Below, in pieces: positions 1 to 12,530 of a stretch of DNA of 12,541 nucleotides (position 1 is its first letter; every line of letters begins with the position of its first letter). The notes beneath the pieces were generated by a model that did not search any database, had not been told where the DNA came from, and saw only the letters and a program-made list of their open reading frames with translations. The DNA comes from a virus. The stretch lies in the UHGV virus genome UHGV-0189011, one strand, 5' to 3'. The position numbers and the translations under genes were made by a program.

Positions 1-40
1 CGCAGGCATTGTTATCAACCCGGCAACAGGGAGGAGCCCT

Positions 41-277
41 ATGCCCGTTATTGCCATTATCGCCATTGTTGCCATCGTCATCATTCTGAACAAAACCGGG
101 GTGTCCGACAGTCTCGCGGCCCTGACCCTTGCCACTGTTGCCGCACTGCTGACGGGAGGTGGCGCAGCCGGTGCTGCCAGTGTCGCGCTGACACCGTTCG
201 TCGGCGTGCCGGTGGGTATTTTCGTCGGCATTTATGTCTTTGCCAAAGTGGTACGTCTGATTTCAGGGAAAAAATAA
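41..277 (+). CDS. small inner-membrane protein (78 aa, two predicted TM helices)
   Basis: ATG at 41 preceded by GGGAGGAG (28-35); hydrophobic segments IAIIAIVAIVIIL and VGVPVGIFVGIYVFA separated by a Gly/Ala-rich linker; stop TAA 275-277 overlaps the next ATG (TAATG). Resembles YkfL/YpjK-type small membrane proteins (recalled). Confidence 0.6.
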   Translation: MPVIAIIAIVAIVIILNKTGVSDSLAALTLATVAALLTGGGAAGAASVALTPFVGVPVGIFVGIYVFAKVVRLISGKK

Positions 278-720
278 TGAAATGTAAAACACTACCTCTG
301 CTGGCGATGGTTGCCACCACTCTGTTTCTGAGCGCCTGCGATGACAGGAGTGATGACCTGAAAGCTATCAGTAAATTTAAGGACCTCACGCCTCCGCGCT
401 TCAGCGATGTGGTCAGTCGGCAGGATGATGTCAGCGAAGAATGGTCACAGGTTGGCTTTTCATCAGGTCTCACCCTGCAGGTCTTACGTACCCGTGAGTC
501 GCCCGATGGCTGCGAGGGCGGTAGTTACTACTACCTCGTGGATATGCAGGAAAAAACCATCCAGCCGCTGATGAATGCGCTGTGTATTGCCGATAACATC
601 AAACTGGAATACCAGGAGGTGACGGACCCGTATACCAAAGAAAAATACTTTGAGTACGCCCATGACGGCAAACTGATGGGGCAGCTACTGATACCCTCGA
701 ACCCTGACAATCAGGAATAA
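277..720 (+). CDS. yafY: lipoprotein (YafY/YfjS-like), 147 aa
   Basis: N-terminal signal peptide with lipobox LSAC followed by DD; ATG at 277 coupled to the upstream stop; stop TAA 718-720. Symbol is by recalled synteny with E. coli CP4-6 and is tentative. Confidence 0.6.
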   Translation: MKCKTLPLLAMVATTLFLSACDDRSDDLKAISKFKDLTPPRFSDVVSRQDDVSEEWSQVGFSSGLTLQVLRTRESPDGCEGGSYYYLVDMQEKTIQPLMNALCIADNIKLEYQEVTDPYTKEKYFEYAHDGKLMGQLLIPSNPDNQE

Positions 721-742
721 AACAACGACAAAGGAGACAAGA

Positions 743-1210
743 ATGACAATACTTTCACTAAGTCGGTTTATGCTGGCGGGTGTACTGCTCGCGAGCTTTA
801 ATGCCTCTGCTATCCCGGGGTTCTGGCAGCAGGGTTACGGTCAGGGCAATACGGAATACAGCGTGACCGAAGCCAGCGGAAAGACGTTTACCATCAACTG
901 CACAGGGAACCCGGACCAGAATGGTTTCTATCAGCATTCAGTCTTTCTTACCCTTGCCGATGACAAGATGGTCAGTTCGCACGATGACGACACTACTATC
1001 ACCGTAGTGATGGATCACCAGCAGTACATTATTCCGTCCAGCCTGGGCTGGCGTAACGGCGATAACGCCTGGTTTGACTTCATCAGCAATATCTCTGAGG
1101 CCGGGCAGTTCGACGTCTACGTCAATGACCACAAAGCAGGGACCTTCACTGCGGACCGGAAGAACACTGAGAAAGTTCTGTCCACTCTCGGAGACTGCAG
1201 CAACGACTGA
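743..1210 (+). CDS. secreted/periplasmic protein with cleavable signal peptide (YkfB/YfjT-like), 155 aa
   Basis: ATG at 743 with AAGGAG SD (731-736); N-terminal hydrophobic signal [23 protein letters not shown]; stop TGA 1208-1210. Confidence 0.6.
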
Positions 1211-1236
1211 TAGTAGTATCTTCCCCAGCAAATCCA

Positions 1237-1271
1237 CCCCGACAGCTAGCAGGCTGCCGGGGTTTTCTTTT
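1237..1271 (+). terminator. putative rho-independent terminator between the secreted-protein gene and the DUF905 gene
   Basis: GC-rich hairpin ccccgacag/ctgccgggg (8 of 9 bp paired, 8-nt loop) at 1237-1262, immediately followed by the T-tract ttttctttt (1263-1271). Confidence 0.45.
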
Positions 1272-1286
1272 ATCAGGAGCCCGAAA

Positions 1287-1526
1287 ATGACCCAATCCGT
1301 GTTGCTGCCACCGGGGCCTTTCACCCGGAGACAAGCGCAAGCGGTCACTACCACGTACAGCAATATCACACTCGAAGACGACCAGGGCAGTCACTTCCGT
1401 CTGGTGGTTCGTGATACTGAAGGCCGGATGGTCTGGCGGGCATGGAACTTTGAGCCGGATGCCGGTGAAGGTCTTAACCGCTATATCCGCACCTCAGGCA
1501 TCCGTACAGACACGGCCACCCGCTGA
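1287..1526 (+). CDS. ykfF: DUF905 family protein (YkfF-like), 79 aa
   Basis: ATG at 1287 with AGGAG SD (1275-1279); product [20 protein letters not shown]... matches the recalled YkfF/DUF905 family. The longer ORF from 1074 is rejected because it overlaps the upstream gene and terminator. Confidence 0.7.
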
Positions 1527-1623
1527 TCGCGAAGCATTTACCCGCATTCACCTCCCCGAACACACTTTATATCCCCATACGCCAGCCATCGCCGCTGGCG
1601 TTTTTATTGACGGAGACATACCC

Positions 1624-2082
1624 ATGACAACACAGACGCAGCACGACCTCGCACCCGCTAACCAACCCGAATTTGAACTGACCGTCACGCCGGTCCCCGA
1701 TGAACAGCGTATCGATTTCTGGCCACAGTACTTTGGCGCTATCCCGCAGTGGCTACTCCTGGAGCCGCATATCTTCGCCTGGATGGATCGCTTCTGTGAG
1801 GGCTACAGCGGTGGTATCTGGTCGTTCTACACCCTCAGCAATGGCGGCGCATTTATGTCCCCCGAGCCTGACAACGATGAGACATGGCGTCTGTTTAACT
1901 GCCTGAACGGTAACGATGCCCAAATGAGTGCAGAAGCAGCAGGTATTGCTGTCTGCCTGATTGCGTATAGCCACCATGCCTGCCGTACAGAATGTGACGC
2001 GATGACCGCACACTATTACCGCCTGCGGGAGTATGCCATGCAACATCCAGAGGCTCACGCCATTCTGCGTATTATCGACTGA
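1624..2082 (+). CDS. yafX: antirestriction protein, KlcA/ArdB family (YafX/YfjX-like), 152 aa
   Basis: ATG at 1624 with GGAGA SD; product MTTQTQHDLAPANQPEFELTVTPVPDEQRIDFWPQYFG... is typical of the enterobacterial island antirestriction family; stop TGA 2080-2082. Confidence 0.75.
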   Translation: MTTQTQHDLAPANQPEFELTVTPVPDEQRIDFWPQYFGAIPQWLLLEPHIFAWMDRFCEGYSGGIWSFYTLSNGGAFMSPEPDNDETWRLFNCLNGNDAQMSAEAAGIAVCLIAYSHHACRTECDAMTAHYYRLREYAMQHPEAHAILRIID

Positions 2083-2097
2083 CCGAAGGAGCAACAG

Positions 2098-2574
2098 ATG
2101 AAACAGCTTTCCTTTTTACCCGGCGAGATGACGCCACAGGACCGGCGTCTCATTCAGCGGGCGCTCAGGGCTCTGGACCGCCACCTGCATGAGCCCGGCG
2201 TAGCCTTCACCTCTACCCACGCCGTACGTGAATGGCTGCGACTGCATATGGCCGCGCTTGAACGGGAAGAGTTCCGGGTGTTGTATCTGGACAACCAGAA
2301 TCAGTTGATTGCCCATGAAACGCTCTTCACCGGCACGATTAACCGCACCGAGGTGCATCCCCGGGAGGTGGTCAAACGTGCTCTGCACTTCAACGCGGCG
2401 GCGGTGATACTCGCGCATAACCATCCTTCCGGCGAGACGACACCTAGCCAGGCCGACAAAACCCTCACGCAGCGACTGGTTCAGGTGCTTCAGCTGGTGG
2501 ATATCCGTGTCCCTGACCATCTGATTGTCGGTGGCAGGCAAATCTATTCGTTCGCAGAACACGGTCTGCTTTGA
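2098..2574 (+). CDS. ykfG: RadC-like JAB/MPN domain protein (UPF0758; YkfG/YfjY/YeeS-like), 158 aa
   Basis: ATG at 2098 with GAAGGAG SD; JAMM-like motif HNHPSGETTPSQAD in the product; stop TGA 2572-2574. Confidence 0.8.
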   Translation: MKQLSFLPGEMTPQDRRLIQRALRALDRHLHEPGVAFTSTHAVREWLRLHMAALEREEFRVLYLDNQNQLIAHETLFTGTINRTEVHPREVVKRALHFNAAAVILAHNHPSGETTPSQADKTLTQRLVQVLQLVDIRVPDHLIVGGRQIYSFAEHGLL

Positions 2575-2582
2575 GGTATTAC

Positions 2583-2804
2583 ATGAAAATTATCAGTAAA
2601 CGCAGGGCAATGACGATATACCGCCAGCATCCTGAGTCCCGAATCTTTCGCTACTGCACCGGCAAATACCAGTGGCACGGTAGCGTCTGTCATTACACCG
2701 GCAGGGACGTTCCGGATATCGCCGGAGTCCTCGCGGTATACGCCGAACGCCGCCAGGACCGCAATGGGCCCTATACCTGCCTGATGAGCATCACCCTGAA
2801 CTGA
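2583..2804 (+). CDS. ykfH: DUF987 family protein (YkfH-like), 73 aa
   Basis: ATG at 2583 (the track ORF from 2571 begins with TTG); product MKIISKRRAMTIYRQHPESRIFRYCTGKYQWHG...; conserved position between the RadC-like gene and the antitoxin in CP4-type modules. Confidence 0.65.
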   Translation: MKIISKRRAMTIYRQHPESRIFRYCTGKYQWHGSVCHYTGRDVPDIAGVLAVYAERRQDRNGPYTCLMSITLN

Positions 2805-2822
2805 CAATAGTGGAGAACTGTA

Positions 2823-3502
<680 letters not shown>

Positions 3503-3604: not shown

Positions 3605-3873
3605 CGGACAAACAATCATGCAACCAGAAGTTGAAGTATTAACCGATCATAATGAGCTAATTTGTTCGAGCTTTATTGAACACATTGCCAACACATTAAA
3701 TTTAGGAGTGGTGTACAACTAAACCTGCAGCCAAGGATGTATAGTGAGCGAAGCCCTATCAGGCCTTTTTGGTCAGTAGATAAGATTGATCTTCGTTGAT
3801 AGAATTTACTTACACCAGCTGTTACATTAAGATAATTTTTTGGTGGGAGAATGATAAGATCTTACGTAACAAT

Positions 3874-3929
3874 TTGATTTTAATGGTGCCGATAATAGGA
3901 GTCGAACCTACGACCTTCGCATTACGAAT
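3874..3929. repeat. attR-type direct repeat: copy of the 3' 46 nt of thrW (3884-3929) plus 10 bp of flank
   Basis: 3882-3929 is identical over 48 bp to 12453-12500; 3874-3929 matches 12445-12500 with one mismatch (offset 8571 bp). Identity stops exactly where the tRNA anticodon region begins (3930 c versus 12501 g). Confidence 0.9.
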
Positions 3930-4163
3930 CTGTAGCACCAATCATAACTATCTGTTTTAGCAAGCATTAACCGCATTCACTAAGCTATAGTTGATGGCAC
4001 AAACAGAAAGTTGATGCATGATGTTGTCATGCGTATGTCACAAATACGGCACAACAATCTTCAAATATGTAGACACACATCTACAGGAGAGCACAAAGCC
4101 TTGCAATACAGTGCAAAGCCTTGTGTGTCTCAGTTTTGTCCTGTGTGCCAGATATTGAATGGC

Positions 4164-4766
4164 CTACGCCTCCGGCAGTTCAGGCCAGATGACATCCGGC
4201 GCGGTGCTGGTATCTGTTACCGTCACCGCGTCAATGTAATCCAGCACGGCGTTAAGTCGGGTTGTTTCTGCCTGCGTCAGCTTCCGCCCGGCCTGTAATT
4301 TCAGTTGAATCAGACTAATGGAAGCCATTGCAGCATCAATCAGTGACTGGCGCTGTGCTTCTGCCGCGTCTACTGCGGCGCTATGCTGTGCCTCAGTATC
4401 GGTCACCCATTTCTCACCATCCCATTTATCGTATGGCGTTAATGGGGCGATAGTGGTTGTATTTTCAGGGTAATCACCCGGAGCGGTGATTTCTTTTGAT
4501 TCTCCTGTTTTGGTGCTATAGACCGTTTCACCGCGATGGTCTGGCACATATTCCCATGAGTTAAAATCTGCAGAACGGCAGATTGCATAACCAGCCTTAT
4601 GTGTGCCAGGGGCATCTAAACAGGAACATGCCGGAATGCCGATACCAACGGCAAGATATTCATTTGAAGTGGAAATATATTCCCGAGTTTCACCATCATA
4701 GCTATAGACGGTAATATTCCCCGCCTTCGTGGCAATAAGCTCGCTATTTAATACAGCGTTATCCAT
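4164..4766 (-). CDS. tail fiber assembly protein (Tfa; Caudovirales tail-assembly chaperone family), 200 aa
   Basis: Product has the Tfa family hallmarks (WEYVPDHRGETVYSTKTGE, EKWVTDTEAQ, VTDTSTAPDVIWPELPEA C-terminus), as in TfaE/TfaQ-type proteins; ATG at 4766 overlaps the fiber stop (TAATG); stop TAG 4164-4166. Confidence 0.8.
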   Translation of the reverse strand: MDNAVLNSELIATKAGNITVYSYDGETREYISTSNEYLAVGIGIPACSCLDAPGTHKAGYAICRSADFNSWEYVPDHRGETVYSTKTGESKEITAPGDYPENTTTIAPLTPYDKWDGEKWVTDTEAQHSAAVDAAEAQRQSLIDAAMASISLIQLKLQAGRKLTQAETTRLNAVLDYIDAVTVTDTSTAPDVIWPELPEA

Positions 4767-5500
4767 TATACAGCCCTCACGATAAAGTTAAATGCAATAT
4801 TTCGCGCACGTGTTTCCGTTGATGTTCTGGCAACACGTGATGCATCAAAATAATAATTCGCCTGTTTATATGTACCACCTGTCGCAATTGATGCGAGATT
4901 TGGTGTCAATGTTGAAGAGGTAAATGCGCCGACAGTATTATTATTTGGCCCCGTGGTCATATCCAAAAAGCTACCTGTAATATTTTGCAGCGTATCGCTC
5001 TGAGCACTCAATAACGCTCGCCCACTGTCCACTCCACGCCCATCATCCCAGCCACGAATAAACTCACCACGTAAATCAGGCAATTTATTTGTCGGGTAAG
5101 CCTTTGCCAGCTCCGGGTATTCTTCAGCAGAAAAAGCTGCACCATTGCATTTCAACCAGCCTGTCGGTGGTGTAGCTGAAGGCCACGGAACAGGCACACC
5201 AACAGGTAATGCAGAGCCTTCTCCCAAACCAAGGTTTGTGGTAATCGCTGTCGCCAGCTTTGCCACCAGTCCATCAACGTCACCATCATCGAGCGCGTCC
5301 AGTTCGGCGTTCGCGATAAACTGCCCCAGTACAGCCGCCATCGTCGACGGTTGGCGCAGCGCTTTACTGACCTGTGCGCTGGATGCTTTACCCGAGGAGA
5401 ATCCTTTCTTCAGTGCGGTTAGCGTCTCCCATTCCTCCTGCGAGGTAACATTTGCATTAGCATCTGTCGCAAACGCTTTAAAATCATTAGTTCCAGCCAT
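4766..5500 (-). CDS. short tail fiber protein with C-terminal phage tail-collar domain, 244 aa
   Basis: C-terminal motif WLKCNGAAFSAEEYPELAKAYP...LPDLRGEFIRGW is typical of the tail-collar domain; start chosen at ATG 5500 (GGGGGAG SD, TAATG overlap with the upstream stop) rather than the track start at 5518; immediately followed by the Tfa gene. Confidence 0.7.
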   Translation of the reverse strand: MAGTNDFKAFATDANANVTSQEEWETLTALKKGFSSGKASSAQVSKALRQPSTMAAVLGQFIANAELDALDDGDVDGLVAKLATAITTNLGLGEGSALPVGVPVPWPSATPPTGWLKCNGAAFSAEEYPELAKAYPTNKLPDLRGEFIRGWDDGRGVDSGRALLSAQSDTLQNITGSFLDMTTGPNNNTVGAFTSSTLTPNLASIATGGTYKQANYYFDASRVARTSTETRARNIAFNFIVRAV

Positions 5501-6180
5501 TAAAGTAATCTCCCCCATGCGCCGTCATCAAAACCGGCGATGTATTCGTTATCCATGTCAAATCCAAAGAATTTTGTTCCTTCGGACGGTGTTTCGACCG
5601 AGGGTGTTTCAACGCCGCCAGCCCATACACCAGCAGCTTTAACGGTGAGATAACCCTGTTTGATAGCGGCTATCAGTTCGAGTGACACATCAGAAATATC
5701 AGTCTCGGGAAAAACCCAGACCGATATCGTCATGTCCTGGTTATCGACGATCTGCATCTTCAGTCCAGAGCCTGCGGTAGCAGCGTCAAGGATGGGAGGC
5801 AGAGAGTCGTTCCGACCATCCCAGTTGTTGATAGCGATTTTCGCTTTCAGAATGATGCGGTACGTCTCATCACTCAGCGTCGTATAGCCAGAATCAGGAT
5901 CATATGGCCCTTGCCAGATGCCCTGGTCATATCCGAGCCCGTCAGTGTCCCAGCTGAAATAAACGCCGCTAATTGGCTGGCTGACTATACGACTACGCCC
6001 AATCCACAGGCCGAGGATATCGAGTTGCACGCCAACCGCCGTATCGATATCGAAGGCTGTTACAAGCCCTGACATAGTGCTGGACACATCAATCAGCGGG
6101 CGGGTGCTCAGATCTATATGGTCAAAAAAGAGTGGCTTGGTAGCGTGGTAGTTAGTGATCAGTTCGGTGTATTTGCTCAT
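5500..6180 (-). CDS. putative tail/baseplate structural protein, 226 aa
   Basis: Intact ORF coupled by ATGA overlap to the upstream gene; lies between a putative baseplate-like protein and the tail fiber; contains a [13 protein letters not shown] motif. Family not confidently recognised. Confidence 0.45.
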
Positions 6181-7277
6181 GAGGTCACCGTGATAGTGAT
6201 ATTCGCGGTGCTACAGGACGCCGAAGCATCATAGGCAATATCAATGTTTGATGCCGATACGCTGCCAGACGACTTACCGATCAGCAGGTCGGTAATATCG
6301 TAATAGCGGGCATTCCCGCCGCTCACAACGCCGAGGTTTGCCGGGGAATAAATACGGCTCAGCAGAACGTCGTCGCCAATTGTTAGGCCATTTATATAAT
6401 CGGCAACAGCCTGTTTAATCTGCTCGCCGATTTGAGAGGTATAGCCGGTAAAAACTTTCAGGGTAATGGCTACGAAAATTGGCACATCGGTAGAGCGCGA
6501 AAAACTGATGACGTGAGGATTACCATAAGTATCCGGCACTGTGACAGAAGTTGTCCCGTAGGTTGCCGTTCCCTGTCCTTTATTCCCCCTGATGGCCTGG
6601 GCAATTTCGGTAACATCCCCACCATCGACGATGGCGGAAATCGAGTGTGGCGGCAGCCCATTGCTGTCGGTTGCCCCCGTGTCGTTCTCATACAGTTTGT
6701 GACGTGTCACGCCAGCAATGTTAGCGATTGCACCGTCGACGCCTTCAAACGGTGTGACCGATGGTAGCGCGACGCTTTGCCCCTGCCGAATGCGCAGCTC
6801 TGCGTCGGTTTCAGCTGGTGAACCGACAGTAGCCGCAGCCGGGTTGGTTACCGACACCCAGCCGCGAGTCGGTGTGTTAATGGTGGTAATAGTCCCGGCC
6901 ATCGCCGCAACCGAACCGCTATTCGCACATGTGGCCGTAACCAGTACAGTACCGTCAACGCCGATCGCTACACTTGCGGGAAAATTCCAGATAATGCCGT
7001 TTTTATCCCGTGCGGAGCCATTCGTGATAGTTGTTCCCGCCGTACCGGTTAACAGAAGGTCAGCAGTAGAGTTTGTCGCTACTTTTCGCGTGATCCCGTT
7101 AATTTTCACATTGCTGCTATCTTCAACGCCAGAATACAGGCGAACACGCTCGCTTGTCGGGATCACGTTAGATGAGCCCAGAATCAGCAGCGCACCGAAG
7201 TTACGCCCGGTTGCCGCCGTCGCCGCCATAATCACATCAACGTTAACAACGTTGGAAACAGGTAAGCCCTGTGCCAT
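6177..7277 (-). CDS. putative tail/baseplate structural protein (possibly baseplate J-like), 366 aa
   Basis: ATG at 7277 with GGAGA SD; Thr/Gly/Ala/Val-rich beta-type composition; the [11 protein letters not shown] motif is reminiscent of baseplate J / gp6-like proteins (recalled, uncertain); positioned two genes upstream of the fiber. Confidence 0.45.
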
Positions 7278-7280
7278 AGA

Positions 7281-7844
7281 TTAATCTCCAAAAAATGATA
7301 CTGGTACATCCACCAGCAATTTGATGCCGTATTCGCGCACAACCTTACGGCGCAGTCGCACCGTCATGTCGTAACGGCGAACCCATTGCTGGTTGATAAG
7401 TTCGGGGAAAGGAGTCAGACCGGTATAGTCGCCAAGGGACAAACCAAGAGCGTTAAGCTCAGCATTATTTTGCGGGACAGATATGCCATCACGAAAACGG
7501 GACGCATAAGACATACCAGCCGGGCCATAGAACGACGCCATGCACTCGAACGTTTCATGCCTCCAGAGCTGAGCGCCCTCTTCAGTCTGCCAGGTGAATG
7601 CAGGGTTGTTATCAATGAGCAACCCGGTAACGCCAAACGCGCACCAGTTCGTTTCAACGGGTGGCAGTGGCGGCTGGTCTTTCTGCCAGCGCGGGCGAAC
7701 CATCCCAGCAGGCAAGCCGGAAACGTTGCGCATCCACTGACTTAACAGCCTGTCTAGCGCTTCGTCATAATCCGGATCGCCGCTGGTGGGTGTCAGCCAG
7801 CCGCGCTCTGTGCTGGTGTTATTGCTCAACGGGAGTTCCCCCAT
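7281..7844 (-). CDS. phage structural protein of unknown function (start uncertain)
   Basis: ORF is open from a TTG at 7907; the first ATG is at 7844, with no convincing SD; stop TAA 7281-7283 lies 4 nt upstream of the next start. Confidence 0.4.
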   Translation of the reverse strand: MGELPLSNNTSTERGWLTPTSGDPDYDEALDRLLSQWMRNVSGLPAGMVRPRWQKDQPPLPPVETNWCAFGVTGLLIDNNPAFTWQTEEGAQLWRHETFECMASFYGPAGMSYASRFRDGISVPQNNAELNALGLSLGDYTGLTPFPELINQQWVRRYDMTVRLRRKVVREYGIKLLVDVPVSFFGD

Positions 7845-9198: not shown

Positions 9199-9520
9199 TA
9201 CCGCCAGTCTGGGCGGCAGAAATCTGCGCTTGCAGGCTGTCGTTCTGCTCTTGCATCTTGAGCAGCGCTTCTTTCAGATCGGCAATCAGCTGATCTTTAT
9301 CGACAATCTGCGCTTGCAGGCTGTCGATAATGGGTTGCAGATCATCGGTGTCGCTAATCACGCTTTCGGAAAGCTCAGAGTGCGCCTGGGTGAACCAGTG
9401 CGACGCGACCTCTTCCGGTACGTTATGCCGTCCCCGGCCAAACTCCTGTTTTGACTGATCGCCCAGCGTCAGCGTAAACGGGGTGTGAACATGGATGGTA
9501 ACCAGCTTTTCTTTCGCCAT
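9152..9520 (-). CDS. small phage structural protein with coiled-coil C-terminal half, 122 aa
   Basis: ATG at 9520 with AAGGA SD; heptad-like region [35 protein letters not shown]; first gene after the capsid-gene hairpin. Confidence 0.45.
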
Positions 9521-11022: not shown

Positions 11023-11511
11023 TTATCCTTTGCGGTTAGACCAGAAGTCGGCGTTTTGTTTGTTCAGGGAAGCGATGCTGGTCATGCCCATATTTGGACG
11101 TTGTGCATCGCCCGTGGTGCTGCGGGTGTTTCGCCCTTTGGCAATCTCAGACACGGCGTTAAACGCCATATCGACCGATTGCTTGGGCAATTTGCGGATA
11201 TCTGCATCACCGACAACCTGGCGAACCAGTGTTTTGTCAGCGGCGGACAGCACATCACGTTTGAACGCGGTCGGTTTCACCTTACGGCTCAGATCGATAC
11301 CCGGAACGATAACTTCGGCACGATAAGCAGCGTCACCGGTAATCGTGGTTTCCTCTTCGTCGTCCTCACCGTCGCCGGTAGGGTCTTTGTTATCTTTGCC
11401 GTCAGGCTTATCGTCGTTATCGCCCGTTGCAGTACCTTCCAGCTTAGCCAGCAGGGCTTTGAGCAAGGTTTTGATATCGTCCTCGCCGTCGCCGGTTGGC
11501 TCTCCGCCCAT
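11023..11511 (-). CDS. acidic scaffolding-like protein with duplicated PTGDGEDD motif (possibly 5'-truncated at the deletion junction)
   Basis: The ORF is open up to 11733, but the part above about 11607 is antisense to the integrase remnant, so the first plausible ATG is 11511 (weak SD); very acidic, low-complexity N-terminal half and alpha-helical C-terminal half; stop TAA 11023-11025. Confidence 0.4.
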   Translation of the reverse strand: MGGEPTGDGEDDIKTLLKALLAKLEGTATGDNDDKPDGKDNKDPTGDGEDDEEETTITGDAAYRAEVIVPGIDLSRKVKPTAFKRDVLSAADKTLVRQVVGDADIRKLPKQSVDMAFNAVSEIAKGRNTRSTTGDAQRPNMGMTSIASLNKQNADFWSNRKG

Positions 11512-11606
11512 TTCCGGCTTTTTGTCCGGCAATGGTTGTTGCGGTGAAAGATTAATGTTGAGGTTAACGCCGCTCGGCAGATCCCCTTCATCGCCCGTTA
11601 GACGGG

Positions 11607-12440
11607 ATGGAAAACCGCCGCCATCGCCTGAACTGGGAGATGAGCCGGGACAGGTGTTTGCGGCTTGGCAAGCCAGTGCCGGAGTATAAACCAAAGCTGG
11701 CAAGCAAAGGAACGAAGACGCGGCATCTGGCAATACTTCGCGCTATTCTCAATATGGCTGTTGAATGGGGATGGCTTGACAGGACGCCCAAAATATCAAC
11801 ACCACGCGTTAAGAATGGACGAATCAGATGGCTTACAGAGGAGGAATCGAAGCGCCTGTTTGCAGAAATTGCTCCTCATTTCTTCCCTGTGGTCATGTTT
11901 GCAATCACGACAGGCCTTCGCCGCTCCAACGTTACAGACCTTGAGTGGTCACAGGTCGATCTGGATAAGAAAATGGCATGGATGCACCCTGATGAAACAA
12001 AAGCTGGCAATGCGATCGGAGTTCCTCTTAACGAAACCGCATGCCAGATATTAAGAAAACAGCAGGGGCTCCATAAGAGATGGGTATTTGTCCACACCAA
12101 ACCTGCCTACCGAAGCGACGGAACAAAAACAGCTGCGGTAAGGAAGATGAGAACCGATAGCAACAAGGCATGGAAGGGAGCGTTAAAGCGGGCAGGCATT
12201 AGCAACTTCCGCTTCCATGACCTGAGGCATACCTGGGCAAGTTGGCTGGTTCAGTCCGGAGTCTCTCTTCTTGCACTTAAAGAGATGGGAGGATGGGAAA
12301 CTCTCGAAATGGTTCAAAGATACGCTCACCTTTCAGCCGGGCATCTCACCGAGCACGCGAGCAAAATCGATGCGATTATAAGTCGCAATGGCACAAATAC
12401 GGCACAAGAGGAGAACGTAGTTTACTTAAATGCGAGGTAA
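11607..12440 (+). CDS. int: tyrosine integrase, P22 Int-like, C-terminal catalytic part only (N-terminal arm-binding region absent; probable pseudogene remnant)
   Basis: Product has the tyrosine-recombinase catalytic signature (TGLRRSN ... HDLRHTWASWLVQSG ... YAHL); in-frame stop TAA at 11565-11567 leaves only 13 codons upstream of the first ATG; phage integrases of this type are about 390 aa, versus 277 aa here; ends 14 nt from the thrW 3' end. Confidence 0.8.
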   Translation: MENRRHRLNWEMSRDRCLRLGKPVPEYKPKLASKGTKTRHLAILRAILNMAVEWGWLDRTPKISTPRVKNGRIRWLTEEESKRLFAEIAPHFFPVVMFAITTGLRRSNVTDLEWSQVDLDKKMAWMHPDETKAGNAIGVPLNETACQILRKQQGLHKRWVFVHTKPAYRSDGTKTAAVRKMRTDSNKAWKGALKRAGISNFRFHDLRHTWASWLVQSGVSLLALKEMGGWETLEMVQRYAHLSAGHLTEHASKIDAIISRNGTNTAQEENVVYLNAR

Positions 12441-12444
12441 CTTA

Positions 12445-12500
12445 TTGATTTAAATGGTGCCGATAATAGGAGTCGAACCTACGACCTTCGCATTACGAAT
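12445..12500. repeat. attL-type direct repeat (3' part of intact thrW plus 10-bp flank), partner of 3874-3929
   Basis: Exact 48-bp identity between 12453-12500 and 3882-3929. Confidence 0.9.
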
Positions 12501-12530
12501 GCGCTGCTCTACCAACTGAGCTATATCGGC
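12455..12530 (-). tRNA. thrW: tRNA-Thr (anticodon CGU)
   Basis: The reverse complement reads GCCGATATAGCTCAGTTGGTAGAGCAGCGCATTCGTAATGCGAAGGTCGTAGGTTCGACTCCTATTATCGGCACCA: 7-bp acceptor stem GCCGATA/TATCGGC, anticodon loop with CGT, T-loop GGTTCGACTCC, encoded CCA. Confidence 0.95.

Follow-up and report, generated by a model that had tools for sequence, protein, structure and literature searches.

A short tail fibre and its Tfa chaperone, probably a locked receptor-binding module, in a tail-less prophage remnant

The G segment of phage Mu comprises the pairs S/U and S'/U' together with Gin, and phage P1 has a C segment with Cin; the S proteins of Mu and P1 both have long shafts. In Escherichia coli K-12, Pin-type sites are substrates of the recombinases PinQ and PinE, and the chimeric fibre StfE2 of e14 is reported to block the receptor against other phages (PMC12529663). 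Short receptor-binding proteins can also sit directly on baseplate wedge proteins. In Vibrio phage XM1, whose simple baseplate includes gp16, gp17, and gp18, the 242-aa gp7-like wedge protein gp17 binds the short spikes (PMC10457771), and residues 3–92 of the phiTE short fibre attach to wedge 1 (PMC11972413). The relatives of the myovirus from which the present locus derives include Citrobacter phage Omnitron, Salmonella phage SEN34, and Escherichia phage vB_EcoM-611R5. A full invertible switch, including its recombinase, is present in Omnitron, E. coli TOK-001, and vB_EcoM-611R5.

In this study, we analyzed a fibre–Tfa pair in a viral sequence of 12,541 nucleotides (UHGV-0189011), the whole of which is called the window here. 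The contig is identical to ENA ERZ772898 NODE_664. Very probably, the pair comes from a temperate myovirus with an XM1-type baseplate and is its still intact receptor-binding module, locked in one specificity and stranded in a dead remnant. The features of the region are as follows.

3884–3929, minus strand: attR core, repeating the last 46 nt (3' end) of thrW (direct repeat and tRNA call)
3930–4163, no strand assigned: attP-derived arm that separates attR from the Tfa stop (identity to lambdoid attP regions)
4164–4766, minus strand: Tfa, tail fibre assembly chaperone, 200 aa, with a start ATG overlapping the stop of the fibre gene (4766)
4766–5500, minus strand: tail fibre gene, 244 aa; Collar domain, with PHROG tail-fibre families on both halves
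4766–5216, minus strand: variable C-terminal receptor-binding module of the fibre, collar and tip (Omnitron, P2-like prophage, and PDB matches)
5217–5244, no strand assigned: single relic crossover site of the Pin/Gin/Cin/Hin type, CCTTCTCCCAAACCAAGGTTTGTGGTAA, at the constant/variable boundary of the fibre gene
5219–5500, minus strand: constant N-terminal module of the fibre, aa 1–94, presumed baseplate-docking domain (identity to Omnitron and TOK-001)
5500–6180, minus strand: DUF2612/Phage_Wedge1 baseplate wedge protein of 226 aa, on which the fibre presumably docks
6177–7277, minus strand: in-frame fusion of sheath aa 1–53 to baseplate J aa 87–399, scar of an 8.07-kb deletion
11596–12440, plus strand: integrase without its N-terminal 107 aa, the 5' end abutting a DUF2213 C-terminal fragment; scar of a 24.4-kb deletion

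The fibre–Tfa pair is real and complete. The first-pass annotation had described a fibre of about 244 aa with a collar domain, followed by a canonical Tfa, and both ORFs are found on the minus strand with matches to Collar and Caudo_TAP, respectively. The 244-aa fibre begins with MAGTNDF; its start codon runs into the TAA of the preceding DUF2612 gene (TAATG), and GGAG lies 9 nt ahead of it. Starting at an alternative in-frame ATG six codons upstream (5518) would lengthen the protein to 250 aa; the length of 244 aa was also called independently on identical contigs, and an identical 244-aa protein is labelled "phage tail protein [Escherichia coli]" in NCBI. The Pfam Collar domain (PF07484) matches with E=2.7e-15 and 56.5 bits (cut-off 24), which passes the gathering score, over residues 107–154 of the 250-aa ORF (101–148 in 244-aa numbering). 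The fibre aligns over its full length with those of the E. coli HZ13 prophage, TOK-001, vB_EcoM-611R5, and Klebsiella phage GZ7. The predicted product of 4164–4766 belongs to the Caudo_TAP chaperones of the lambda Tfa/Mu U/P2 G type, with matches to PF02413 (E=2.1e-32; 112.4 bits, cut-off 22.1) and PHROG 105 (tail fiber assembly, E=1e-98) and 94% amino acid identity to the Tfa' of Omnitron. An identical tfa gene is on record with Caudo_TAP_N and Caudo_TAP. A PDB sequence search with Tfa gave no match, and an NCBIfam search with the fibre, Tfa, the DUF2612 protein, and the fusion protein also gave none. A promoter and terminator scan of 3850–7400 yielded counts close to those of shuffled sequences and nothing usable. 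The AlphaFold2 monomer of the fibre (32-sequence alignment; mean pLDDT 49, pTM 0.22) was too poor for a fold search, and its residues 7–89 are predicted to be helical with low confidence.

The cassette had been placed at the edge of the element beside attR, and the Tfa stop is indeed 234 bp away from the 46-nt copy of thrW. The direct repeat is longer than this copy: positions 3866–3929 equal 12437–12500, including the 3' 46 nt of tRNA-Thr(CGT) (12455–12530). The spacer at 3930–4153 is 92–96% identical to the attP arm of the lambdoid phages HK75, mEp213, mEp043, HK446, and mEpX2, and the junction between this arm and tfa is common to the HZ13 prophage. A chimera of two prophages, considered because of the lambdoid attP arm, was rejected, since HZ13 has the same junction in one coherent genome that combines lambdoid early genes with a myovirus tail.

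Comparison with HZ13 indicates that the element is an 8.5-kb remnant of a prophage of roughly 41 kb, reduced by two deletions of 24.4 kb and 8.1 kb. Relative to HZ13, no early or lysis gene is left, only a small part of the sheath gene remains, and the terminase, portal, tube, tape measure, hub, and spike are gone. The shorter deletion has its junction at 7116/7118, which joins positions 4837 and 12912 of the HZ13 prophage locus (L006), and created the fusion protein, in which PHROG 205 (sheath) covers aa 1–53 and PHROG 6 (wedge) covers aa 57–365; BLASTP matches the two halves to the sheath and baseplate J of HZ13. The junction of the longer deletion (11596–11598) joins 17201 and 41632 of the same locus. 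The truncated integrase there is 99% identical to aa 108–384 of the HZ13 integrase, and the DUF2213 fragment corresponds to aa 216–406 of 406. The complete integrase, regulatory, packaging, and tail genes that characterize a functional prophage are not present, and the fibre cannot serve its own element because the surrounding prophage is tail-less. A capsid-encoding satellite was rejected as an explanation, as the gene ends are truncation and fusion scars. The first-pass annotation had overlooked this tail-less deletion remnant around the fibre, as well as the shufflon-like switch in close relatives.

It is improbable that the fibre and Tfa have been kept for a host function, whether receptor blocking, as for e14 StfE2, or as parts of a tailocin or helper-dependent satellite. 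Consistent with such a function, none of the remaining ORFs, including those of the fibre and Tfa, is disrupted, 16 contigs from several samples carry this remnant with an identical fusion protein, and fibre proteins of cryptic prophages have an anti-phage precedent (PMC12529663). However, the intactness fits a recent deletion and is explained by the youth of the element, whose integrase is 99% identical to a full-length one. The deletion scars (truncated integrase, DUF2213 fragment, and sheath–baseplate J fusion) also argue against retention, as does the loss of the late promoter region, sheath, tube, and packaging genes, and none of 5426 complete E. coli genomes carries the element over at least 80% of its length.

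The crossover site at 5217–5244 is a CCTTCTCCCAAACCAA site, and it matches the repeat of the e14 P segment at 16 of 16 positions (repeat as printed in PMC12529663). One copy is present in the window, where none would be expected by chance. Similarity to other prophages breaks off at 5237–5240, within the site. Three loci in relatives (L001, L004, and L012) have paired inverted crossover sites, and in the switches of Omnitron, TOK-001, and vB_EcoM-611R5 the site lies at the same codon positions as here (LGLGEG). Omnitron holds a C-terminus and Tfa of the window type in the opposite orientation. A second site, sought with up to three mismatches, was found neither in the window nor in 21 kb of an identical contig. 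No serine recombinase gene with a resolvase domain is present among the called genes of that contig, and an alternative, promoterless fibre C-terminus with a second Tfa on the opposite strand is absent at 3930–4163. Compared with a Din-family switch, the locus thus has the site within the fibre gene but not the inverted partner, the adjacent recombinase, or the alternative cassette. The cassette is locked because it has one site, no partner, and no invertase. The earlier remark that no invertase or inverted repeats were seen holds for the invertase and the partner repeat, but it missed the one Pin/Gin-type site inside the fibre gene.

A Pin recombinase acting in trans, and further sites, may be present elsewhere in the host genome. 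We nevertheless regard it as quite improbable that the orphan pair is active as a receptor blocker like StfE2, or that the orphan site is used in trans by the Pin recombinases of other prophages. If the latter were true, trans use of 5217–5244 by Pin would capture new cassettes or rearrange the chromosome. It is very unlikely that the locus itself is a still active, phase-variable, shufflon-like host-range switch. A perfect Pin-type site within the fibre gene, inversion in the relatives, and the use of such sites by PinQ and PinE of E. coli K-12 (PMC12529663) would fit this view, but the site is single both in the window and in the 21-kb contig, the alternative C-terminus, Tfa', and resolvase gene are missing, and the Tfa stop leads directly into the attP arm, likewise in the HZ13 prophage.

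By its alignments, the fibre is a two-part mosaic of a constant N-domain (aa 1 to about 94) and a variable collar part of about 150 aa (aa ~95–244). All 94 residues of the N-terminal module are identical in Omnitron (94/94), and the N-terminus of the TOK-001 fibre is also identical. The C-terminal module has 96% amino acid identity to the inverted alternative C-terminus of Omnitron. Its sequence matches in PDB are the phiTE short tail fiber (9cuy, E=2.5e-26), the T4 gp37 tip (2xgf, E=3.9e-15), and T4 gp12 (1ocy, E=0.0014). The proposal that fibre and Tfa form an exchangeable host-range module is borne out, as the C-terminal part and Tfa are 98.5% identical in nucleotides to a P2-like prophage (H gene), and the C-terminal part shares 57–67% protein identity with the Stf proteins of HK97 and HK106 and with P2 H. 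In the suggested alignment with lambdoid and P2 side fibres, homology was confirmed for this C-terminal part, but a P2-like H has no match to residues 1–71.

The length of the fibre is native and normal for the short-fibre family of XM1/SEN34/Omnitron-like temperate myoviruses, to which it belongs by its N-domain of about 90 aa at the very N-terminus and its 244 aa within the family range of about 200–330 aa. The N-domain occurs in 2582 library proteins, and in nearly all of the best 150 of these it starts within the first 8 residues. The median length is 265 aa (interquartile range 212–333 aa) among the best 147 representatives; these lengths were taken from an exhaustive representative search in place of a word-indexed one. 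When the N-domain alone was used in the word-indexed search, every protein retrieved was short and most were labelled partial, which fits assemblies breaking at the cassette and is uninformative on lengths. A PDB sequence search found no homologue for the N-domain. The best 120 full-length homologues of the fibre have 227–304 aa (coverage 98–100%), and the aligned fibres from intact-looking prophages and phages have 254–267 aa. The shortness that had seemed unusual is therefore the norm in the family. Of the two options offered at first, a minimal receptor-binding fibre was the correct one; N-terminal shortening is contradicted by the identity of aa 1–94 to the Omnitron N-terminus and by equally short homologues. 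The result that had been named as decisive, homologues in which the protein corresponds only to the C-terminal fragment of a longer fibre, was sought, and the opposite was seen. The derivation from P2 H by loss of the shaft was dropped, since the N-domain shows no similarity to the N-terminus of a P2-like H. It is hardly credible that the fibre is an N-terminally truncated piece of a longer side fibre like lambda Stf, P2 H, or Mu S that has lost its attachment region and shaft: although its last 150 aa match the ends of much longer fibres (PHROG 523, positions 472–638 of 673; a P2-like H of 504 aa at its aa 332–503), only the exchangeable cassette is shared with these, whereas residues 1–94 are a conserved domain in their own right, found at the very N-terminus in nearly all of its best 150 carriers, and translation of the fibre is coupled at its start to that of DUF2612, both here and in the relatives.

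The order Baseplate_J, DUF2612, fibre, and Tfa occurs in all five relatives examined (L001–L004 and L012), with DUF2612 always directly upstream of the fibre. The window keeps this order, its Baseplate_J gene being the fusion remnant. The DUF2612 protein matches PF11041 (E=1.9e-46) and is 97.8% identical in amino acids to that of Omnitron. This gene layout appears to be that of the simple baseplate of XM1. From the gene order and the structures of distant phages, we infer that the N-domain docks on Wedge1.

Taking the pair as a locked module in a dead remnant, we propose the following course. In close relatives, a serine invertase flips a segment of about 1.8 kb and thereby exchanges the C-terminus and Tfa for the other pair. 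The lineage of the window has neither the partner site nor the alternative cassette nor the invertase, which leaves the specificity locked. The N-domain probably docks the short trimeric fibre on the DUF2612/Wedge1–Baseplate J wedge, the collar and tip would bind a surface receptor, probably LPS, and Tfa presumably drives trimerization of the C-terminal part of the fibre. In this cell, the fibre and Tfa genes would give no working tail. The pair may survive as a genetic fossil of recent origin that supplies host-range sequence to incoming phages via homologous recombination.

The finding is ordinary, because the length is normal for the family and the pair sits in a tail-less 8.5-kb wreck, and its significance beyond correct annotation is slight. 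Fibre length by itself is no sign of truncation, as 230–300 aa is full length in this family, and a neat fibre–Tfa pair at a prophage edge is possible in an element without any tail. The cassette of C-terminus and Tfa travels among P2-like, lambdoid, and XM1-like phages. Its seam is a Pin-type site, and at LGLGEG this seam is a natural swap point for host-range engineering.

Among known systems, Omnitron (CP115737), the TOK-001 prophage, and vB_EcoM-611R5 share the order of Baseplate_J, DUF2612, short fibre, and Tfa with the window. The N-terminal 94 aa are those of Omnitron, and the C-terminus (96%) and Tfa (94%) of the window represent one of its two alternatives. These three elements appear complete, and each has a serine recombinase, an inverted partner site, and a further C-terminus and Tfa as the alternative, whereas the window, a remnant, has none of these and ends at attR. 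The thrW prophage of E. coli HZ13 (NZ_CP128609, about 41 kb) has the same integration site, an integrase with 99% identity, and a near-identical attR arm. It ends in the same structure as the window, with a fibre (266 aa), Tfa (200 aa), attR, a single relic site, and no invertase. HZ13 retains the lambdoid early region, lysis, terminase, portal, sheath, tube, tape measure, and baseplate genes, of which the window has lost 32.5 kb. HZ13 is a cousin and not the parent, because the structural genes are only 73–86% identical in DNA.

The switches of e14, Mu G, and P1 C combine a constant fibre N-terminus with a swappable C-terminus and Tfa, as in the window, but the window has neither a recombinase nor a second site. 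The P segment of e14 (stfP/tfaP, tfaE/stfE, and PinE) uses the same kind of crossover site, with the 16/16 repeat match. Mu S and P1 S have long shafts, whereas the constant part in the window is about 94 aa. In XM1 and phiTE, as is likely in the window, short receptor-binding proteins sit directly on a Baseplate_J-type (gp6-like) protein and small gp7-like wedge proteins. Several head proteins of the element match Pfam families that bear the names of XM1 and E217, and the phiTE short fibre 9cuy matches the C-terminal part of the fibre. The XM1 and phiTE structures have no sequence match to the N-domain, and the equivalence of DUF2612 to XM1 gp17 is presumed. XM1 gp18 is a tailspike, in the place of which the window has a collar fibre and Tfa. 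The Stf proteins of HK97 and HK106 and P2 gpH have N-termini unrelated to that of the window and long shafts (504 aa in a P2-like H), but their C-terminal collar/tip module and Tfa are homologous to those described here.

The fibre and Tfa genes, like all genes of interest here, lie on the minus strand of the window:

4766-5518, minus strand: fibre ORF from the first ATG, 250 aa
4766-5500, minus strand: fibre from the second in-frame ATG at 5500, 244 aa, the version read in the first-pass annotation
4164-4766, minus strand: Tfa, 200 aa, with its start on the fibre stop codon

GGAG lies 9 nt before the ATG at 5500, which shares the sequence TAATG with the stop codon of the preceding gene. The same start/stop coupling is seen in relatives, and identical contigs whose genes were called independently likewise carry the 244-aa version. 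The fibre contains a Phage Tail Collar domain (PF07484, E=2.7e-15, 56.5 bits vs a cut-off of 24), and the product of 4164-4766 is recognised as a tail fibre assembly protein by both Caudo_TAP (E=2.1e-32) and PHROG 105 (E=1e-98). These matches, far stronger than chance would give, show that the pair of collar fibre and chaperone described in the first-pass annotation is real. NCBI lists a protein identical to the 244-aa form under the name 'phage tail protein [Escherichia coli]'.

The pair was also said to lie at the attR edge, where the following features were located:

12455-12530, minus strand: tRNA-Thr(CGT)
3884-3929: copy of the 3' 46 nt of the tRNA, inside a 64-nt repeat (3866-3929 and 12437-12500)

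The integrase gene (11607-12440) adjoins the complete tRNA; therefore, 3884-3929 is attR in the lambda convention, and the Tfa stop codon lies 234 bp from it, which confirms the position. In the segment 3930-4153, identity to the lambdoid phages HK75, mEp213, mEp043, HK446, and mEpX2 (attP region) is 92-96%. There are two copies of the 20-mer ATG(T/G)CACAAATACGGCACAA, one in the attR arm (4035-4054) and the other on the attL side close to the 3' end of the integrase gene (12388-12407), which may serve as arm-type sites for integrase binding. A short hairpin (4069-4086) and a repeated GCAAAGCCTTG motif are also present in the attR arm.

The window is 100% identical to a metagenome contig (ENA ERZ772898 NODE_664), whose neighbouring genes frsA, crl, phoE, and proBA correspond to the E. 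coli thrW region. Outside attR (window 1-3500; contig 13556-20000) is a CP4-6-like island encoding a CbtA/CbeA toxin-antitoxin pair, DUF987, RadC, antirestriction, DUF905, and YfjT/YfjS-like proteins; the phage remnant and this older thrW island are therefore arranged in tandem. A second prophage (yfdN, yfdR, yfdT, integrase) adjoins the attR of the thrW myovirus prophage of E. coli HZ13 (L006, NZ_CP128609; positions 1-1600), giving two prophages in tandem at one att site.

The HZ13 prophage of approximately 41 kb occupies the same thrW site and encodes an integrase of 384 aa. It also has the lambdoid early, nin, Q, and lysis genes, a terminase, a portal, head genes, and a tail set of sheath, tube, tape measure, baseplate, fibre, and Tfa. 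When the window is mapped onto this prophage, two deletions appear:

11596-11598: junction of L006 17201 to 41632, 24.4 kb gone
7116/7118: junction of L006 4837 to 12912, 8.07 kb gone

The 24.4-kb deletion, with a 3-nt overlap at its junction, removed all of the early, lysis, terminase, and portal genes. The integrase (11596-12440, plus strand) lacks its first 107 aa and is 99% identical to that of HZ13 in the rest, and it is abutted by a DUF2213 head protein (11023-11610, minus strand) of which aa 216-406 are left. The 8.07-kb deletion took most of the sheath gene, the tube, tape measure, hub, and spike, and because of it the ORF at 6177-7277 (minus strand, 366 aa) joins sheath codons 1-53 in frame to baseplate J codons 87-399. 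About 8.5 kb is left between the att sites. Recent deletions are suggested by the intact state of every surviving ORF and by an integrase fragment that differs very little from its full-length counterpart. The fusion protein is unchanged on the 16 contigs read, from several samples. None of 5426 complete E. coli genomes carries the element over at least 80% of its length. In automatic annotation, the fusion would pass as plain Baseplate_J. A 122-aa STY1053-family ORF contains a perfect 22-nt direct repeat (9221-9242 and 9305-9326, 84 nt apart) which gives a repeated SLQAQI motif where a coiled coil is predicted.

In the parent phage, Tfa would aid the folding and trimerisation of the C-terminal collar and tip, as Tfa proteins reportedly do for fibre C-termini (North et al. 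2019, cited in PMC9881135); the N-terminal domain would anchor the short fibre to the wedge, and receptor binding would set off contraction. By analogy with the related tips of Mu, P2, and T4, the receptor is probably LPS. None of these steps can take place in this cell because there is no tail, packaging, or excision. With considerable confidence, we regard the pair as a fossil of recent origin that incoming phages could draw on for host-range sequence. A function retained for the host, either receptor blocking like that of e14 StfE2 or the supply of tailocin or satellite parts, is improbable; the deletion scars speak against design.

The fibre is itself a mosaic, as indicated by the following matches and site:

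4139-5240: C-terminus of the H fibre and tfa of the E. coli F467 P2-like prophage, 98.5% DNA identity
5018-6300: TOK-001 prophage, 96% DNA identity
5217-5244: crossover site CCTTCTCCCAAACCAAGGTTTGTGGTAA, at the breakpoint of the E. coli matches

The similarity of many E. coli matches ends at 5237-5240. CCTTCTCCCAAACCAAGGTTTGTGGTAA has its sole copy in the window here, where none is expected by chance, and its first 16 nt equal the e14 P segment inverted repeat as printed in PMC12529663. In Escherichia phage vB_EcoM-611R5, the TOK-001 prophage, and Citrobacter phage Omnitron (41.9-kb circular record), two inverted sites about 1.8 kb apart bracket fibre-C/Tfa and Tfa'/fibre-C' beside a serine recombinase, which in Omnitron has Resolvase and HTH_7 domains. 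The opposite-strand alternative of Omnitron is the window-type C-terminus (96% aa identity) and Tfa (94%); thus, the window fibre is what an Omnitron-like fibre would become if the segment flipped. The first-pass annotation saw neither invertase nor inverted repeats. This holds for the resolvase gene, which is missing among the genes called on the identical contig, and for a second crossover site, of which none was found in the window or the 21 kb of that contig with 3 mismatches allowed, but one Pin-type site is present at 5217-5244. The alternative cassette (fibre-C'/Tfa') is also absent from the window. A switch that is still active is thus highly improbable despite this site, since three of its four defining features were looked for and not found. 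The HZ13 prophage is likewise locked in the order fibre, Tfa, attP arm, attR; therefore, the switch was lost before this copy decayed. The DNA invertase adjoining the invertible segment of vB_EcoM-611R5 (L001 14246-14560) is annotated at just 104 aa and appears truncated, so that this phage may also be locked. Databases contain many 'partial' fibre proteins of approximately 90-160 aa that stop soon after the constant N-domain (P0001-P0037), and the probable cause is that draft assemblies are interrupted at this repeated or invertible cassette.

PHROG profiles divide the fibre into two parts. In the numbering of the 250-aa ORF, tail-fibre family 1396 covers residues 1-96 with its first 93 positions, family 11303 covers residues 9-94 with its positions 2-88, and the C-terminal ends of long-fibre families cover residues 90-250. 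Four relatives align along their full length:

E. coli HZ13 prophage fibre: 266 aa
E. coli TOK-001 prophage fibre: 254 aa
Escherichia phage vB_EcoM-611R5 fibre: 264 aa
Klebsiella phage GZ7 fibre: 267 aa

The N-terminus of the TOK-001 fibre is that of the window in the alignment, and so are the first 94 residues of the Omnitron fibre. The whole fibre gave 7725 matches, the best 120 of which are 227-304 aa long with 98-100% query coverage. An exhaustive search with residues 1-96 found 2582 proteins; among the best 150, the N-domain begins at most 8 residues from the start in nearly all, and the median length is 265 aa (interquartile range 212-333 aa). The first-pass annotation offered an 'N-terminally shortened' fibre as one alternative and named a refuting result, namely homologues in which the protein matches no more than the C-terminal fragment of a longer fibre; the homologues show the opposite. 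A truncated long fibre has thus been tested and is rejected as very improbable. As judged from these comparisons, 244 aa is the native size.

The order Baseplate_J, DUF2612, short fibre, Tfa is conserved in 5/5 relatives examined, with a Baseplate_J of 399 aa and a DUF2612 protein of 226 aa or slightly longer. The database record for DUF2612 reads 'Phage_Wedge1', and head proteins of the window match Pfam families named for Vibrio phage XM1 and Pseudomonas phage E217. The minimal wedge in XM1 is (gp16)2-gp17, in which the gp7-like gp17 (242 aa) directly binds the short spikes (PMC10457771). A second published precedent is phiTE, whose short fibre is attached to wedge 1 by residues 3-92 (PMC11972413). 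The C-terminal part of the fibre resembles the phiTE short fibre (9cuy, E=2.5e-26) and the collar regions of T4 gp37 and gp12. We infer that the short fibre is a trimer docked through residues 1-94 on the DUF2612/Baseplate J wedge, with the receptor bound by the collar and tip. For the N-domain, the sequence search gave no homologue of known structure, and the AlphaFold model of the fibre monomer (pLDDT 49) was unusable. We assign the pair to the short-fibre family of temperate myoviruses resembling XM1, SEN34, and Omnitron.

None of the components is of a new type, public databases already list the identical protein with an annotation, and the association of DUF2612 with invertible fibres has been published. 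Three details deserve to be kept: LGLGEG as a natural seam, the orphan Pin-type site, and the fusion of sheath to baseplate J in frame. In its mode of action, the pair resembles the fibre cassettes of e14, Mu, and P1, but it is not a functional member of the invertible-switch class.
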